Shown piece after piece: positions 27,882 to 33,115 of a DNA stretch of 64,000 nucleotides. How positions within the stretch are numbered: position 1 is the first letter of the stretch; each line of letters begins with the position of its first letter. The notes under the pieces are model-generated. The model saw only the letters and a program-made list of their open reading frames with translations. It was not told the DNA's origin and made no database searches. This DNA is from Escherichia phage HansTraber_Bas100. The position numbers were made by a program, and so were the translations under genes. The stretch lies in sequence record PQ850605.1; one strand, written 5' to 3'.

Positions 27882-28526
27882 ATGATTAATGCAAACGTAA
27901 TATCTAAAGGGACCGGATGCAGCATGGATGTTGCTGAAAAATGGGTCGACCCCTTCAAGCAGGCTTGTGAGCACTACGGAATCAAAAGCAAGAATGCCAT
28001 CGCTGCGCTGCTTGCAAACGTAGGAGTGGAAACAGGCAGTCTGAAGACCTTTGTGGAAAATCTGAATTATTCCGCTCAAGGTCTTGCTAATACGTGGCCT
28101 AGCCGTTACAGCGCCAGCGGTCGTTTCGGTGGCGCACCAAACTCCTTGGCATTGTCGATTGCCCGTAAACCAATGGAAATCGCCAATAATACATATGCAA
28201 ACCGAATGGGAAATGGTTCGGTAGCATCTGGCGACGGTTGGAAGTACCGTGGCCGTGGTGCCATTCAGCTGACTGGAAAGGATAACTATGCAGAGTATTC
28301 AAAGCAATCAGGGTATGACGCATTGAATAACCCTGACATTTTGACTGAGCCGAAATACATTGCTGACAGCGCGGCATGGTTCTTCAAGAACAGCGGTTGC
28401 ATTCCACTTGCCGATGCGGGCGCATTTGATTCGACCGTGAAGCGGATTAACGGGGCCGCGCCAAATACGGCTAACCATGGGGATTTGCGACGAAAGCGTT
28501 ACAAGGAAGCACTAGCAGTTATGTAA
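27882..28526 (+). CDS. endolysin, glycoside hydrolase family 19 type
   Basis: YRGRGAIQLTG matches the GH19 signature; last gene of + strand structural block. Confidence 0.75.
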   Translation: MINANVISKGTGCSMDVAEKWVDPFKQACEHYGIKSKNAIAALLANVGVETGSLKTFVENLNYSAQGLANTWPSRYSASGRFGGAPNSLALSIARKPMEIANNTYANRMGNGSVASGDGWKYRGRGAIQLTGKDNYAEYSKQSGYDALNNPDILTEPKYIADSAAWFFKNSGCIPLADAGAFDSTVKRINGAAPNTANHGDLRRKRYKEALAVM

Positions 28527-28558
28527 GAAAAAGGCCCATATGGGCCTTTGTTTATTTT
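28527..28558. terminator. bidirectional intrinsic terminator
   Basis: AAGGCCCA-ta-TGGGCCTT stem flanked by A-run upstream and T-run downstream, between convergent genes. Confidence 0.6.
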
Positions 28559-28782
28559 ACGGCTTCAACCTGGACGGGCGGCGCGGAACTTGTATCGATG
28601 TCTGGCAAGTCGAAGTAATACCCCGCCATGCCAATCACGCCAACAATCGCGGCCCGTGCCACCTTGTTGCTAATTGACTCCCCAATAAGCTTTACCAACA
28701 GGGACAAGATTTGAGACGTCAAAGCCTTTTTCAGCCTTTTGTTTTCTTCCAAATCTTTCTGCATAACTACCACCCATGTCAA
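28552..28782 (-). CDS. small hypothetical protein with one hydrophobic segment
   Basis: 76-aa ORF, AAIVGVIGMAGYYF hydrophobic stretch; ATGA overlap with upstream gene. Confidence 0.45.
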   Translation of the reverse strand: MTWVVVMQKDLEENKRLKKALTSQILSLLVKLIGESISNKVARAAIVGVIGMAGYYFDLPDIDTSSAPPVQVEAVK

Positions 28783-29321
28783 CGCACATCCTGTGTCTTA
28801 ACATTACCTGAAGCATCTCTTAATGGCAGTGGATAGTAGGCCATTTGGTAGTCTGATACGCCTTCAACATGATAAAACACGATTACGTCTTTGCTGTTGA
28901 TGAGCATGTTAACGACATCTGATTTATCTTCTGGAGTGAGTATGAGTGCGCCGCCTGTCCTGCTGTCTACTGCAACAGGGTATGTCTTATCGACAAGGCC
29001 GCTGTCCAATGTATTATACCTGACAACGATTTCAGGGGCATCAACTTTTGCAATTGACATTCCGAACACAAACGACACGACTTGGCGACCGCGATCATTC
29101 ATTACGCACATCTTTTCCTTGTCAAACCTTTCCTTTATCACATCGTATTTATTCCAGCAAAATTCGAACGATTGGCCGTTGTTAAAATATCTCGTTAACA
29201 CTTTGGCATTACTATTTGGCGGCGTAAACATACTTTCAGCCGCTGCACTTTTGGTGAAGAACAAAACTGTCAGCATAGCCATGATGATGATCAAAACAAT
29301 CTTTAAGTTTTTCGATTTCAT
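28779..29321 (-). CDS. secreted or membrane-anchored protein (N-terminal signal/TM)
   Basis: AAGGTGA RBS; N-terminus MKSKNLKIVLIIIMAMLTVLFFTKSAAA. Confidence 0.5.
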   Translation of the reverse strand: MKSKNLKIVLIIIMAMLTVLFFTKSAAAESMFTPPNSNAKVLTRYFNNGQSFEFCWNKYDVIKERFDKEKMCVMNDRGRQVVSFVFGMSIAKVDAPEIVVRYNTLDSGLVDKTYPVAVDSRTGGALILTPEDKSDVVNMLINSKDVIVFYHVEGVSDYQMAYYPLPLRDASGNVKTQDVR

Positions 29322-29497: not shown

Positions 29498-30475
29498 TTA
29501 AAAATACTCCATATCGGTAATATCACGGAAGCATTTATACAAAGCAGAGCGCGGCACGTCGACGATGCCAAAGTTAAAGAATTTATACGTTAGGTATTTA
29601 TCGCGATAGTTCTCGCGATTCTCCCAAAGCATTTTACGCTCTGCCATAGGCATTGAACCAGCGGAGACGCGGAAAGGAATCATTTCACCTTTCTCATCCA
29701 CATATTTTGGATTGACGACTACGAATGAGCCAAGGTATCCTTTCGCAACTAAACCTTCAGCCTCTTTTGAACGCTTGGTGCGACCCAATTCGTCAATGAA
29801 TGCTTCGTTGTTGTTCTCCATCATCTCAACGAAGTCTATGATCAACCCTTCTTCATCGGTCCACGGCTTGTCCTTCCACACATCACGTGACTTCGGCGTC
29901 GCGCGGCCATGCTTATATTTGCCCGTCCAAGACTTGCCATACAAGCCTTCATAGCCAAGCTGGTCTGCTTCGATTTGCATTGCCGCGTACTGGTCCATAT
30001 TTTCGATGTTGCGATATTCGAGAGCGCGAAGGAATGGACGTCGGCCATGGTCAATGAGATGTTGATTGACCTCAGCAACACGTCGATTGTACTTCTCATA
30101 ACGGGCCGAGAATGGCAAATCAGGTTCGCTAAAGTCATCAAACACCCACCATGTAAAGTTAGTGATTGCATCAGTGTTCATGCATGCAGTATAGGCCTGT
30201 TGCATGACGTTCTTGTCATTTGGATTGCCGTCGATTAGCTCTCCATCAAGTCCGTGAATTAATTCACCCAAGAAGAGGAACTCTTTTTTGATTTGAATGT
30301 TGCGCAGCGCCATGCCGGACGTGCCCATTGGCAAGTTGTCATACGCCATTGCGCGTATGCCATCGACCTTGAATGACAATCCGCAAGGCAGCGGCACGTC
30401 TTCGCCGCGCTCGATTATTTGCTTACGCTGGCAACCCTTCATTGGTTTTAATGCTTTGATTTCTCCTGCCATCAC
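29498..30475 (-). CDS. ATP-dependent DNA ligase
   Basis: motif I KVDGIR (adenylation lysine) near N-terminus; 325 aa. Confidence 0.7.
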   Translation of the reverse strand: MMAGEIKALKPMKGCQRKQIIERGEDVPLPCGLSFKVDGIRAMAYDNLPMGTSGMALRNIQIKKEFLFLGELIHGLDGELIDGNPNDKNVMQQAYTACMNTDAITNFTWWVFDDFSEPDLPFSARYEKYNRRVAEVNQHLIDHGRRPFLRALEYRNIENMDQYAAMQIEADQLGYEGLYGKSWTGKYKHGRATPKSRDVWKDKPWTDEEGLIIDFVEMMENNNEAFIDELGRTKRSKEAEGLVAKGYLGSFVVVNPKYVDEKGEMIPFRVSAGSMPMAERKMLWENRENYRDKYLTYKFFNFGIVDVPRSALYKCFRDITDMEYF

Positions 30476-31065
30476 TCAAACTCCTTATTCATCACTTGTT
30501 CCAGCGCATAGGCGTAATCCTGATCAGTCGATTTGATAAACGTGCCGTTGTACATGACGCCTTTGCGGTCTTTGATGTCTTCGTAGGCAGCTTGCGCACA
30601 GTCGGATAAGCGAAGGCCATAATCATGAGCTACGCCGGAAAGGTAATCGACTGCGGCCATGATGTTGACGTCAATATCCATGGTTTGATTCTTGGCAATA
30701 GCATCACCAAGTCGTCCAAGGGTCTTTGCCAGGCGAAGGATAAATGAATGAGGGTGAGCGCCTTTATCAGCGCAACCGCCGCCATTAATGTTTTCGATTT
30801 CAGCACCGTTTTGCGCTGCCAGGATGGTCAACACAACAAGGCAATCGCCAATGTCGTCCTTAATTGCAGCTTGCAAGTCACAGATGGCCTGCTCTGTATA
30901 TCCAATTTCAGGGTCGAAGAACACAAGGTCATGGAGTTGATCAACGTGGTCGGTTAACTCCCCAAACTCGCTGATAAGCTTCGGGTATTGGTCCTTAAGG
31001 TCGCAACCTTGGATGATGTTACGGTCAGAAGCCCACTGGCGAATGTTTGCATAAATCTGTTTCAT
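30472..31065 (-). CDS. mazG: MazG-like nucleoside triphosphate pyrophosphohydrolase
   Basis: 197-aa ORF with EFGELTDHV-type acidic motif; 4-nt overlaps with both neighbours. Confidence 0.65.
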   Translation of the reverse strand: MKQIYANIRQWASDRNIIQGCDLKDQYPKLISEFGELTDHVDQLHDLVFFDPEIGYTEQAICDLQAAIKDDIGDCLVVLTILAAQNGAEIENINGGGCADKGAHPHSFILRLAKTLGRLGDAIAKNQTMDIDVNIMAAVDYLSGVAHDYGLRLSDCAQAAYEDIKDRKGVMYNGTFIKSTDQDYAYALEQVMNKEFE

Positions 31066-31580
31066 TTATTTTCCTTTGATGCATTGAATTGATCGATTTT
31101 TATTTTAGCCTGATTATAAGTATCAATCAAGCTATTAACTTTCTCTTTTAATCGATTTGTTTCTGCGGCGAACTGAACAAGAAATCTGACATCTTCTTCT
31201 GATAGTCCACAGTTTCCTTCTGGGATAGAGAGGCGTCCAGTGGTCGCAGAGTCGGGCACACTCCTGAGTAACTCACGGGAGCAGCTGAGTTGCTCGCGCA
31301 GCTTGATATTCCCAGACTTGTAACGAGCAATAGTGTCATCAGCAACCAGTTGCGCTTCCTGGCGACCTTTCTCATATGCCGATGCCGATTCAACCTGTAA
31401 AGATGCAATTTGCTCTTCGAGTGCATTTATCTTGTCCTTACGCTCATTAAGCGATGTCAGATATTGATTATCCTTGGCCAGTGATGCGTTGGTTTGCTGC
31501 AGGTCTTCAACGTATGATCCAGCGGCGAACGCGCCAACAAGGGCCAGAATCTTCAGGAGCGGTACAATTCTTTCTATCAT
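31062..31580 (-). CDS. i-spanin-like protein (N-terminal TM helix, periplasmic coiled coil)
   Basis: N-terminal IVPLLKILALVGAFAAGSYV hydrophobic helix then heptad-like charged region; contains embedded +1-frame lipoprotein ORF. Confidence 0.45.
   Translation of the reverse strand: MIERIVPLLKILALVGAFAAGSYVEDLQQTNASLAKDNQYLTSLNERKDKINALEEQIASLQVESASAYEKGRQEAQLVADDTIARYKSGNIKLREQLSCSRELLRSVPDSATTGRLSIPEGNCGLSEEDVRFLVQFAAETNRLKEKVNSLIDTYNQAKIKIDQFNASKENK
31148..31426 (-). CDS. o-spanin-like outer membrane lipoprotein, embedded in 31062-31580
   Basis: AAGGA RBS 8 nt upstream of ATG 31426; basic n-region, hydrophobic LLMTLLLVTSLGI, lipobox-like ISSC; alternative start at 31375. Confidence 0.4.
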   Translation of the reverse strand: MHSKSKLHLYRLNRHRHMRKVARKRNWLLMTLLLVTSLGISSCASNSAAPVSYSGVCPTLRPLDASLSQKETVDYQKKMSDFLFSSPQKQID

Positions 31581-31590
31581 GATGCACCAG

Positions 31591-31620
31591 ATAAATAAAA
31601 GGCCGCCAATCGGCAGCCTT
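31591..31620 (-). terminator. candidate intrinsic terminator
   Basis: imperfect AAGGCCGCC / GGCAGCCTT stem followed on - strand by T-rich run. Confidence 0.4.
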
Positions 31621-31637
31621 GTTGATTTGATTGTCGA

Positions 31638-32498
31638 TTAAAACTCTTCTGCGTCGGTCGGAGTTTCATTGACAGGACCAGCGGCACCGCTTGCTTCTTC
31701 CTGCTTGCTGCGGTCAATGTTAACGTTGCCGCCAACTACGTCGTTGTGGAATGCTTTAGCGACTTCGTACAGACCTTTATCCTGCACCAGACCTTCCAGC
31801 TCAAACTTAAGAACTGACCAGGTGTTGCCGTCTTTGGACTGAGATGCAGTGCCCATGCGAACAATGTTCATAAAGGTCGGCGGCGTTTTCAGACCCTGCG
31901 GAGTCTGAACTTTCTTCTGCTGCAGAGCGGTCATCAGCATGCGAGACGGCTTGATCATGGAAGAAGTCAGAGACAGCATTGCGCTACCAAATTCACCAGT
32001 TTCTTCGTTCAACAGAATTACGAAGTGGTTGCGTGTATCTGCGTAGTAAGGCGATTTCTTCTCGTGCACCTTGCCGTTTTCGTCCGGCACGAATACCTTA
32101 CCGTTGATCTCAACAGCGCGGCCTGCCGCGACTTCTGCATCAACGTGCTCTTTGGTGAATTCACCTTTAAAGCCTTTATCGTCGGACTCGCGACCGCCCC
32201 AAAGGATGAAGGTGCGTTTGAATGCGCAAGGGATGATCTGCACGCCTTTCTTGCCGTCATACAACTCACCAGTAACGGTGTTGTAAAGCATGCCAGCTTT
32301 TGCACCAGGAACGTGTTTTGGATCATCTTCGTCGACCATAGGAGACATCTTCTGCAGGACGACGATAAAAGGAATGGCATACGCATCGGCATCGGCACCT
32401 TCAAAACCAGCGCCAAAATCGGTCATGTCGACAAAATCAGCCATAGCGGACATCTGGGTGTTTTTCACTGCAACTTCGGTAGTTTCTTTCTTAGACAT
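31638..32498 (-). CDS. hypothetical protein, possibly an SSB (acidic tail ending in Phe)
   Basis: 286-aa ORF in replication block; C-terminus TPTDAEEF resembles acidic Phe-terminated tails of E. coli SSB and T7 gp2.5. Confidence 0.4.
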   Translation of the reverse strand: MSKKETTEVAVKNTQMSAMADFVDMTDFGAGFEGADADAYAIPFIVVLQKMSPMVDEDDPKHVPGAKAGMLYNTVTGELYDGKKGVQIIPCAFKRTFILWGGRESDDKGFKGEFTKEHVDAEVAAGRAVEINGKVFVPDENGKVHEKKSPYYADTRNHFVILLNEETGEFGSAMLSLTSSMIKPSRMLMTALQQKKVQTPQGLKTPPTFMNIVRMGTASQSKDGNTWSVLKFELEGLVQDKGLYEVAKAFHNDVVGGNVNIDRSKQEEASGAAGPVNETPTDAEEF

Positions 32499-32557
32499 TT
32501 GATATTTTCCTATAGTATCAAGTTTCGTGGCAACCTGATTTCAAGATAAAGGTTAAA

Positions 32558-33115
32558 TTACTTTTTGCTTTTAGGCAAGGTTATTTTAGCTTCTTTGTAT
32601 TCAAAAACGCTAATATCTTCACTAACTGGATTGCCCGCTTCCAGCTGTTCTTTTACAAACGACTTCAGTGTAGCAGAATGAACGCCTTGTTTCAACGTGG
32701 CTTCAACACCATCTTCACGCAGCGCGGCAACAATCTCTTGCGCCTGTTCGATTTCTTCGCGACCGAACTCAGCCGTGACGCTGGACTTGATCAAGCCGCC
32801 GTAACCGTTGTTGACAAGCCAATCGAAAACTTTTAATTCGTTTTCTTTCTTGATTGAAGCGTTCACCTTGGACTCGACCTTGATTTTGGTCTTGTCCTCA
32901 AGCTTGATTTCGGACACACCAAGCTCATCCATAACGCCAGGAAGCAGAACAGTTTTGATTTCACTGATGCGCTGCTTTTGCATATCAGCTTCATCTTCAA
33001 GCTCTGTCAAAGCCTCTTGGCGTTCTGCCAGTTCAGATACTAAGCGCGCAAGGCGCTCTTGAATGCTCTCAGGAGCGACCTGCGGCAAATCATCTTCCCA
33101 ATTAATATTGCTCAT
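32558..33115 (-). CDS. hypothetical coiled-coil protein
   Basis: 185-aa ORF in replication operon. Confidence 0.5.
   Translation of the reverse strand: MSNINWEDDLPQVAPESIQERLARLVSELAERQEALTELEDEADMQKQRISEIKTVLLPGVMDELGVSEIKLEDKTKIKVESKVNASIKKENELKVFDWLVNNGYGGLIKSSVTAEFGREEIEQAQEIVAALREDGVEATLKQGVHSATLKSFVKEQLEAGNPVSEDISVFEYKEAKITLPKSKK

Follow-up and report, generated by a model that had tools for sequence, protein, structure and literature searches.

In phage lambda, the gene of the lipoprotein Rz1 is nested in the +1 frame of the gene of Rz, a type II membrane protein with two periplasmic cysteines and the plan TMD, CC1, linker, CC2, and the pair belongs to a holin-endolysin-spanin cassette. 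In phage T4, the spanin genes PseT.3/PseT.2 have a separated rather than embedded architecture and do not lie near the holin and endolysin genes (Fig. 8 legend, PMC6139136). Closest to the locus described here is the pair of phage ECML-117, which Kongari et al. 2018 (BMC Bioinformatics 19:326, PMC6139136) list as an embedded spanin. In their Table S1, the o-spanin, 'not annotated / putative o-spanin', has 75 aa, of which 25 are signal peptide and 50 the mature part, and the i-spanin has 172 aa. They list the i-spanin as a singleton family and describe the pair as 'best possible candidates'. The record of phage Mansfield (MK903282; Center for Phage Technology, 2019) annotates an i-spanin and an o-spanin with ribosome-binding sites, and the BASEL records of Bas98, Bas99, and Bas101 (PQ850608 and related) carry an 'Rz-like spanin' and an 'o-spanin' at the same coordinates as the pair studied here. 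An embedded spanin pair of this kind is already known, catalogued in 2018 and annotated in GenBank. The RefSeq records of WFC, WFH, and FEC19 and most GenBank relatives contain the outer gene only or label it 'hypothetical protein'; embedded o-spanins are skipped by gene callers, and beyond correct annotation the locus has little significance. A paper on Pantoea phage PA1 (PMC11538084) that cites Mansfield concerns a Chaseviridae phage and is not relevant here.

The window, the whole 64,000-nt stretch of DNA that we analysed, comes from a Wifcevirus E. coli myophage. Across the region 30400-32600, it has 98.7% DNA identity to Escherichia phage HermannAdler_Bas98, whose coordinates plus about 2 give those of the window, and 94-98% identity to 27 other Wifcevirus genomes, including WFC, WFH, ECML-117, FEC19, and vB_Eco4M-7. 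An earlier note, made from the sequence of this DNA, had read two overlapping frames in the region as an i-spanin/o-spanin pair. Applying the spanin criteria of Summer 2007 and Kongari 2018, we consider it highly probable from sequence comparison that the locus encodes a two-component spanin of embedded, lambda Rz/Rz1-like architecture; that reading is supported by PHROG and Rz homology, by the conservation of the embedded frame, and by independent curation. The pair and its parts are as follows.

31062..31580, minus strand: i-spanin, Rz-like, 172 aa, predicted type II inner-membrane protein with two periplasmic helices and a linker (open reading frame, phrog_1327, AlphaFold2)
31515..31568, minus strand: N-terminal transmembrane segment of the i-spanin, about residues 5-22, IVPLLKILALVGAFAAGS (Kyte-Doolittle hydropathy, conservation)
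31148..31426, minus strand: o-spanin open reading frame, long form, 92 aa from M1, +1 frame, wholly inside the i-spanin gene (open reading frame; 'o-spanin' in Bas98 and Mansfield)
31148..31375, minus strand: o-spanin, short form, 75 aa from M18 (MRKVARKRNW...) (start of Kongari 2018 Table S1)
31298..31309, minus strand: lipobox I-S-S-C, the Cys being residue 43 of the long and 26 of the short form, with Ala at +2 (sequence)

The earlier note had described the 172-aa protein as a single N-terminal transmembrane helix followed by charged, heptad-like sequence. The first part holds: the N terminus, MIERIVPLLKILALVGAFAAGSY, is hydrophobic (Kyte-Doolittle maximum 1.8 over 19 residues) and is kept so in relatives, residues 5-22 being hydrophobic, conserved, and helical in the AlphaFold2 model. 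For the identical protein of ECML-117, 24 N-terminal residues count as the membrane part and 148 as periplasmic (Kongari 2018 Table S1, PMC6139136), and we infer an N-in/C-out topology. The AlphaFold2 model, built from a shallow six-sequence alignment, has a helix at residues 5-106, an unstructured linker at 107-127, and a second helix at 128-171, with a mean pLDDT of 80, a layout that matches the plan of lambda Rz. For the ECML-117 protein, the helix content in the tables of Kongari 2018 (PMC6139136) is 62.8%, and Pepcoil places a coil at residues 25-77. The heptad periodicity, judged by a crude a/d test, is only weakly supported (p about 0.07 and 0.035 for residues 25-77 and 128-171, respectively). 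Two cysteines, C100 and C124, are invariant, and the i-spanin resembles lambda Rz in having two periplasmic cysteines.

The i-spanin matches phrog_1327, 'Rz-like spanin', with E=8.6e-27, its residues 6-160 aligning to profile positions 9-156 of 158. A search of 1.8 billion representatives with a profile built from the clade i-spanins found 237 proteins at E<=0.001, about 160-180 aa long. The Pfam family PF03245 (bacteriophage Rz lysis protein) was matched by 45 of 59 aligned proteins, a set consisting of the five clade sequences and the top profile matches, and 8 of the 10 best distant relatives (E 4e-23 to 9e-11 with the clade profile) were above its gathering cutoff. Unlike lambda Rz, the window i-spanin has no direct match to PF03245 at E<=0.1 (nor anything significant in NCBIfam), and its kinship is visible through the clade profile only. 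Since most of the best relatives found with the clade profile exceed the PF03245 cutoff and the window protein itself is without a match, it is a divergent relative within the Rz superfamily, not a scored member of the Pfam family. Weak matches to GvpL/GvpF, MreC, and PspB were well under the cutoffs and were rejected as coiled-coil noise.

The embedded frame had been claimed to lie in the +1 frame wholly within the 172-aa gene, and it does: 31148-31426 falls inside 31062-31580, and the start is offset by 154 nt, (31580-31426) mod 3 being 1. The placement is lambda-like, with the o-spanin start about 0.3-0.4 of the way along the i-spanin and its end at 0.83. Its product reads MHSKSKLHLYRLNRHRH-MRKVARKRNW-LLMTLLLVTSLG-ISS/C-ASNS..., where the slash precedes the lipobox Cys. 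The basic n-region, hydrophobic core (LLMTLLLVTSLG), and lipobox-like ISSC previously proposed are all present. Counted from M18, a 25-aa signal peptide is followed by a 50-aa predicted mature lipoprotein starting CASNS, and a PROSITE PS51257-type lipoprotein rule is satisfied in all 8 lineages (Cys 26, K/R within the first 7 residues). Counted from M1, the same rule fails, as the Cys is at 43, outside the usual 15-35 range, and the signal peptide would be atypically long. The lipobox Cys is invariant in 8 of 8 aligned lineages, and the +2 residue after it is Ala, Val, or Lys across all lineages and never Asp. Under the Lol sorting rule of E. coli, the absence of Asp at +2 is an outer-membrane sorting signal. 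For ECML-117, the curated lipobox is 'GISS' followed by 'CAS' (Kongari 2018 Table S1, PMC6139136). The mature o-spanin has one further conserved Cys and, at 50 aa with 4 prolines, differs from mature lambda Rz1, which has 10 prolines in 40 residues (PMC6139136). The phrog_4306 profile, labelled 'Rz-like spanin' and containing o-spanins, matched the 92-aa product weakly (E=3.7e-4, residues 11-56 only), and Pfam and NCBIfam scans of the o-spanin gave nothing significant.

Comparison with curated spanin sets leads to the embedded class, as the i-spanin is 100% identical to the Kongari 2018 entry for ECML-117; that of Mansfield is identical too. ECML-117, Mansfield, and Bas98 share with the window the embedded frame, the lipobox, and the position between the Pam3 gp34-like gene and MazG, and the ECML-117 o-spanin has 5 residue differences (K/R, S/N, Q/R, I/T) and otherwise nothing essential separating it from that of the window. 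Outside the clade, the closest detectable relatives are the spanins of PY54 (ORF63), LIET2 (gp065), and Mica (gp32/gp31). The i-spanins of PY54 (Yersinia) and Mica (Burkholderia) show 27-33% identity over 76-89% of the query, and that of Pantoea phage LIET2 46.5% identity over the C-terminal 41% of the query only. All three phages also have a nested +1 lipoprotein, with o-spanins that can be aligned to ours and a conserved lipobox Cys. The motif common to them and the clade is AIS[GS]C ... CP.L.P.D..L...ET.DYQ..MS.FLF, the version in PY54, LIET2, and Mica being AISGC...CP.LPP.D..L...ET.DYQ..MS.FLF. Unlike in the window, the PY54 pair closes a holin-endolysin-Rz-like spanin cassette, and in Mica the order is holin, SAR endolysin, and i-spanin with an annotated embedded o-spanin.

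Homology and anatomy suggest that the pair would act by the standard two-component spanin mechanism. By analogy with lambda Rz/Rz1, the i-spanin would be a type II protein inserted into the inner membrane, and the C-terminal regions of the two partners would bind, giving a complex that spans the periplasm through the peptidoglycan mesh. The conserved cysteines (C100 and C124 in the i-spanin, plus the one in the mature o-spanin) may, as in lambda, form homotypic disulfide-linked dimers. A holin would let the GH19 endolysin degrade the wall and so free the spanin complexes, which would then fuse the inner and outer membranes, disrupting the outer membrane as the last step of lysis. On this model, Wifcevirus phages carry the standard outer-membrane-disruption module, and their lysis system is short only of an identified holin. 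Our literature search found no report of an experiment on this pair or on any Wifcevirus spanin.

The surroundings of the pair differ from those in lambda, as it lies outside a holin-endolysin-spanin cassette. The elements concerned are the following.

31062..31065, minus strand: ATGA, 4 nt shared by the i-spanin stop and the start of MazG (sequence)
31599..31620, minus strand: intrinsic-terminator-like hairpin, AAGGCTGCCGATTGGCGGCCTT followed by a T-run, ending 18 nt 5' of the i-spanin ATG (sequence)
27882..28526, plus strand: GH19 endolysin (PF00182, 30.5 bits against a cutoff of 25.5; phrog_181 endolysin, E=1.4e-69)
28530-28549: terminator-like hairpin 3' of the endolysin, followed by convergent minus-strand genes (sequence)
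28552-28764, minus strand: gene of a 70-aa product with two amphipathic/hydrophobic helices and a variable tail, conserved, in a PHROG of unknown function

The spanin gene and the endolysin gene are on opposite strands, with four genes and about 2.5 kb between them, and the usual linkage to holin and endolysin is absent. The intervening hairpin and minus-strand genes bear out the claimed separation by convergent genes and a terminator. No SAR, signal, or membrane segment was found at the endolysin N terminus, where MINANVISKGTGCSMDVAEKW is not hydrophobic. The earlier note had seen no convincing holin beside the endolysin, and neither annotation nor hydrophobicity points to one: a hydrophobicity scan of all open reading frames found no small multi-TMD protein among the annotated genes, the annotations of Bas98 and of the Mansfield region examined contain no holin, and the vB_Eco4M-7 paper does not mention one. 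The 70-aa product is the only nearby holin candidate, which we regard as a lead and not a finding. In two relatives, a lambda-R-like transglycosylase replaces the GH19 endolysin, while the 70-aa gene and a neighbouring 180-aa secreted protein are kept.

On its other side, the i-spanin gene shares the ATGA with MazG, confirming the 4-nt overlap noted before, and judging by this sequence it is probably translationally coupled to that gene, a MazG-like pyrophosphatase (phrog_1992, E=1.1e-62 in PHROGs). The hairpin before the i-spanin gene is labelled as a terminator in the WFC and Mansfield records, and its tail is 'cggcctttt' in 4 of 5 lineages (the window and the metagenomic relatives L005-L007) and 'cggcctttc' in L008. 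A promoter scan gave sites no more frequent than in shuffled sequence. With a terminator before it and coupling to MazG after it, the pair therefore stands first in a unit of spanin, MazG, and ligase genes that needs either read-through or an unrecognised promoter.

The placement inside a replication operon, to which the earlier note had drawn attention, is real, but less odd than was implied, given the conserved terminator before the gene and the precedent of T4. The T4 spanin genes likewise lie away from the holin and endolysin genes, and linkage to the lysis genes is thus not required; we detected no sequence relation of our pair to PseT.3/PseT.2, which sit among nucleotide-metabolism genes. 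In lambda, intact peptidoglycan keeps the spanins inert until the wall is degraded. A gene whose product is restrained in this way need not sit in a late lysis cassette; by this analogy, early or middle expression would be harmless, and such inertness fits the placement after a terminator within the replication-gene cluster.

The position in a non-late cluster and the lack of an identified holin, together with the few prolines of the mature o-spanin (4 in 50 residues), could also be taken to mean that the pair derives from a spanin and has come to do something else in the envelope (superinfection exclusion, for instance, or envelope remodelling in early or middle infection), with the outer membrane disrupted otherwise, e.g., by a disruptin-like peptide. 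We think this very improbable: all the defining spanin features are kept under purifying selection, the near-identical Bas98 genome has no other annotated spanin or u-spanin candidate, and the curators of the spanin set settled on this pair as their best possible candidates in ECML-117 (PMC6139136). A two-component spanin acting in lysis remains our preferred reading.

We then asked how far the embedded frame can be distinguished from chance. The length of the open reading frame alone is weak evidence for an embedded gene, since 2-16% of synonymous-codon shuffles of the i-spanin gene contained a +1 open stretch no shorter than the observed one. Only 0-0.3% of the shuffles had such a stretch combined with a lipobox and a hydrophobic core, and the +2 frame of the window clade is, unlike the +1 frame, full of stops. 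The embedded frame is intact in 7 genus members. In the four metagenomic relatives L005-L008, which have 53-65% i-spanin identity, the +1 frame and the lipobox Cys are kept, and the embedded products align from the signal peptide through the C terminus. We also computed the pairwise divergence at codon positions along the i-spanin gene, with the following results for third positions and for synonymous differences among identical residues.

Before the overlap: third-codon-position divergence 0.60; synonymous differences among identical residues 0.58
M1 to M18: third-codon-position divergence 0.50; synonymous differences among identical residues 0.44
M18 to the o-spanin stop: third-codon-position divergence 0.28; synonymous differences among identical residues 0.26
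After the overlap: third-codon-position divergence 0.48; synonymous differences among identical residues 0.41

As the third positions of the outer frame are the second positions of the +1 frame, the drop over the overlap is what dual coding predicts. That halving of divergence, like the rarity of the lipobox-bearing stretch among the shuffles, speaks against the +1 frame being an untranslated by-product of the codon make-up of an Ala/Glu/Gln/Leu-rich helical protein, with the 172-aa protein acting alone or with an unlinked lipoprotein. Besides the frequency of equally long stretches, such a by-product would be in keeping with the weak PHROG match of the 92-aa product and with its basic N-terminal region, which may simply follow from the GAA/GAG/CAA codons of frame 0. 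Against it also stand the lipobox Cys, the hydrophobic core, and the 35-residue mature motif, which the Wifcevirus clade shares with PY54 and Mica, at only 27-33% i-spanin identity, and with LIET2, and we regard it as very improbable. In our assessment of the sequences, the conservation across eight lineages is the decisive point for the embedded gene. As for further independent lineages, a word-indexed protein search gave 5 clusters only, and scans of IMG/VR and metagenomes with the clade alignment returned near-identical Wifcevirus contigs only, which added no independent lineage to bear on the start codon.

Equally improbable is that the 172-aa protein is a membrane-anchored coiled-coil protein of replication or recombination rather than of lysis: the pair is indeed flanked by genes for DnaE, an SNF2 helicase, a VRR-NUC-like protein, Pam3 gp33/gp34-like proteins, MazG, and DNA ligase, is joined to MazG by the ATGA, and keeps its synteny in divergent relatives (in the four metagenomic ones, the common order is DnaE, VRR-NUC-like, SNF2 helicase, Pam3 gp33-like, Pam3 gp34-like, i-spanin, MazG, ligase), but the protein has Rz sequence homology and homologues in canonical lysis cassettes, the conserved terminator stands between its gene and the upstream ones, the T4 spanin genes are also found away from holin and endolysin (PMC6139136), and the match to a replication protein, which the earlier note had named as counting against a spanin, was found in none of Pfam, NCBIfam, and PHROGs, the outer frame belonging instead to phrog_1327 'Rz-like spanin' with relatives in PF03245.

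For the spanin pair, the two published choices of the o-spanin start disagree: the Mansfield and BASEL records begin at M1 (92 aa), and Kongari 2018 Table S1 (PMC6139136) begins the ECML-117 protein at M18 (75 aa). The proposed ribosome-binding site of the embedded frame is present, as had been claimed.

31435..31439, minus strand: AAGGA, Shine-Dalgarno-like motif, 8 nt 5' of the ATG of M1 (sequence, conservation)

The ATG of M1, the AAGGA, and the 8-nt spacing are kept in five lineages, all of which have an anti-SD duplex energy at M1 between -5.4 and -5.9 kcal/mol; the corresponding values upstream of M18 are -0.2 to -2.2 kcal/mol, and no Shine-Dalgarno motif precedes M18 in the five lineages of the clade. 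The AAGGA is encoded by the invariant i-spanin residues R47-K48-D49. Over M1, i-spanin residue 52 varies (N, Y, H, D), always with a NAT codon and always followed by a codon beginning with G, and T-ending codons for N/Y/H/D residues are the minority choice in neighbouring genes. On the other hand, the suppression of synonymous changes begins at M18 and not before, and the equivalent Met of PY54, LIET2, and Mica, having a stop just upstream, is the sole possible start there, which leaves no room for an M1-type extension. The earlier choice of the ATG behind AAGGA is therefore upheld as regards the conserved motif, and set against it is the use of M18 in the curated spanin set. We lean slightly toward M1 being used, alone or together with M18, and hold M18 as the only start to be a credible reading that falls a little short of even chances. 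Rather unlikely is a more elaborate version, in which M1 is used in the Wifcevirus-like clade and the two starts may together act as a dual-start device, adjusting how much o-spanin is made or how fast it is exported. If M1 is used, the canonical lipoprotein signal would be preceded by a basic, acid-free extension of 17 residues, which places the lipobox Cys at residue 43.

The lysis enzyme itself differs among the relatives of the phage. The GH19 endolysin gene of the window (27882-28526) is shared with the metagenomic relative L007, and in two other metagenomic relatives, L005 and L006, a transglycosylase resembling lambda R is found at that place. The features concerned are:

28552-28764, minus strand: gene of a 70-aa protein of family phrog_5165, convergent with the endolysin gene and directly adjoining it
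28779-29321, minus strand: gene of a 180-aa protein with a cleavable-looking signal peptide (MKSKNLKIVLIIIMAMLTVLFFTKSAAA, apparent cut before ES)
L005 9065-9520 and L006 9078-9530: gene of the lambda-R-like transglycosylase, 150 aa (MLAWSEGT...)

Because L005 and L006 retain the flanking 70-aa and 180-aa genes despite their different lysis enzyme, the endolysin was replaced inside a conserved module. The 70-aa gene is kept in L005-L007, and the relatives keep the 180-aa gene adjoining it; comparison of the 180-aa protein with Pfam and PHROG gave no match. Two helices, amphipathic or hydrophobic, lie at about residues 17-32 and 39-55 of the 70-aa product, which ends in a variable, proline-rich tail and is the sole holin-like candidate in the vicinity of the endolysin.

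The spanin pair is preceded by a hairpin and two genes:

31599-31620, minus strand: strong intrinsic-terminator hairpin, ending 18 nt ahead of the i-spanin start
31638-32498, minus strand: Pam3_Gp34 gene, strong Pfam match (PF23977, E=4e-86)
32558-33115, minus strand: DUF7307 gene (Pam3 gp33-like family), strong Pfam match (PF23984, E=3e-37)

In every relative the two upstream genes are conserved alongside the DnaE/SNF2 replication cluster. Of the five lineages, four keep the hairpin tail cggcctttt, and the other, the metagenomic relative L008, has cggcctttc. With the hairpin placed ahead of i-spanin, the spanin-MazG-ligase unit must therefore be expressed by terminator read-through or from an unseen promoter.

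Within the genus, i-spanin of WFC-type genomes (L002 and L011) is 171 aa long and ends in ...SKEK, at the site equivalent to 31062-31070 of the window; in the RefSeq annotation of WFC it abuts the MazG gene with no ATGA overlap. Compared with phages ECML-117 and Mansfield, o-spanin (31148-31426) carries 4-5 residue differences (K/R, S/N, Q/R and I/T substitutions) while i-spanin is 100% identical, the o-spanin substitutions sitting on third codon positions of i-spanin.
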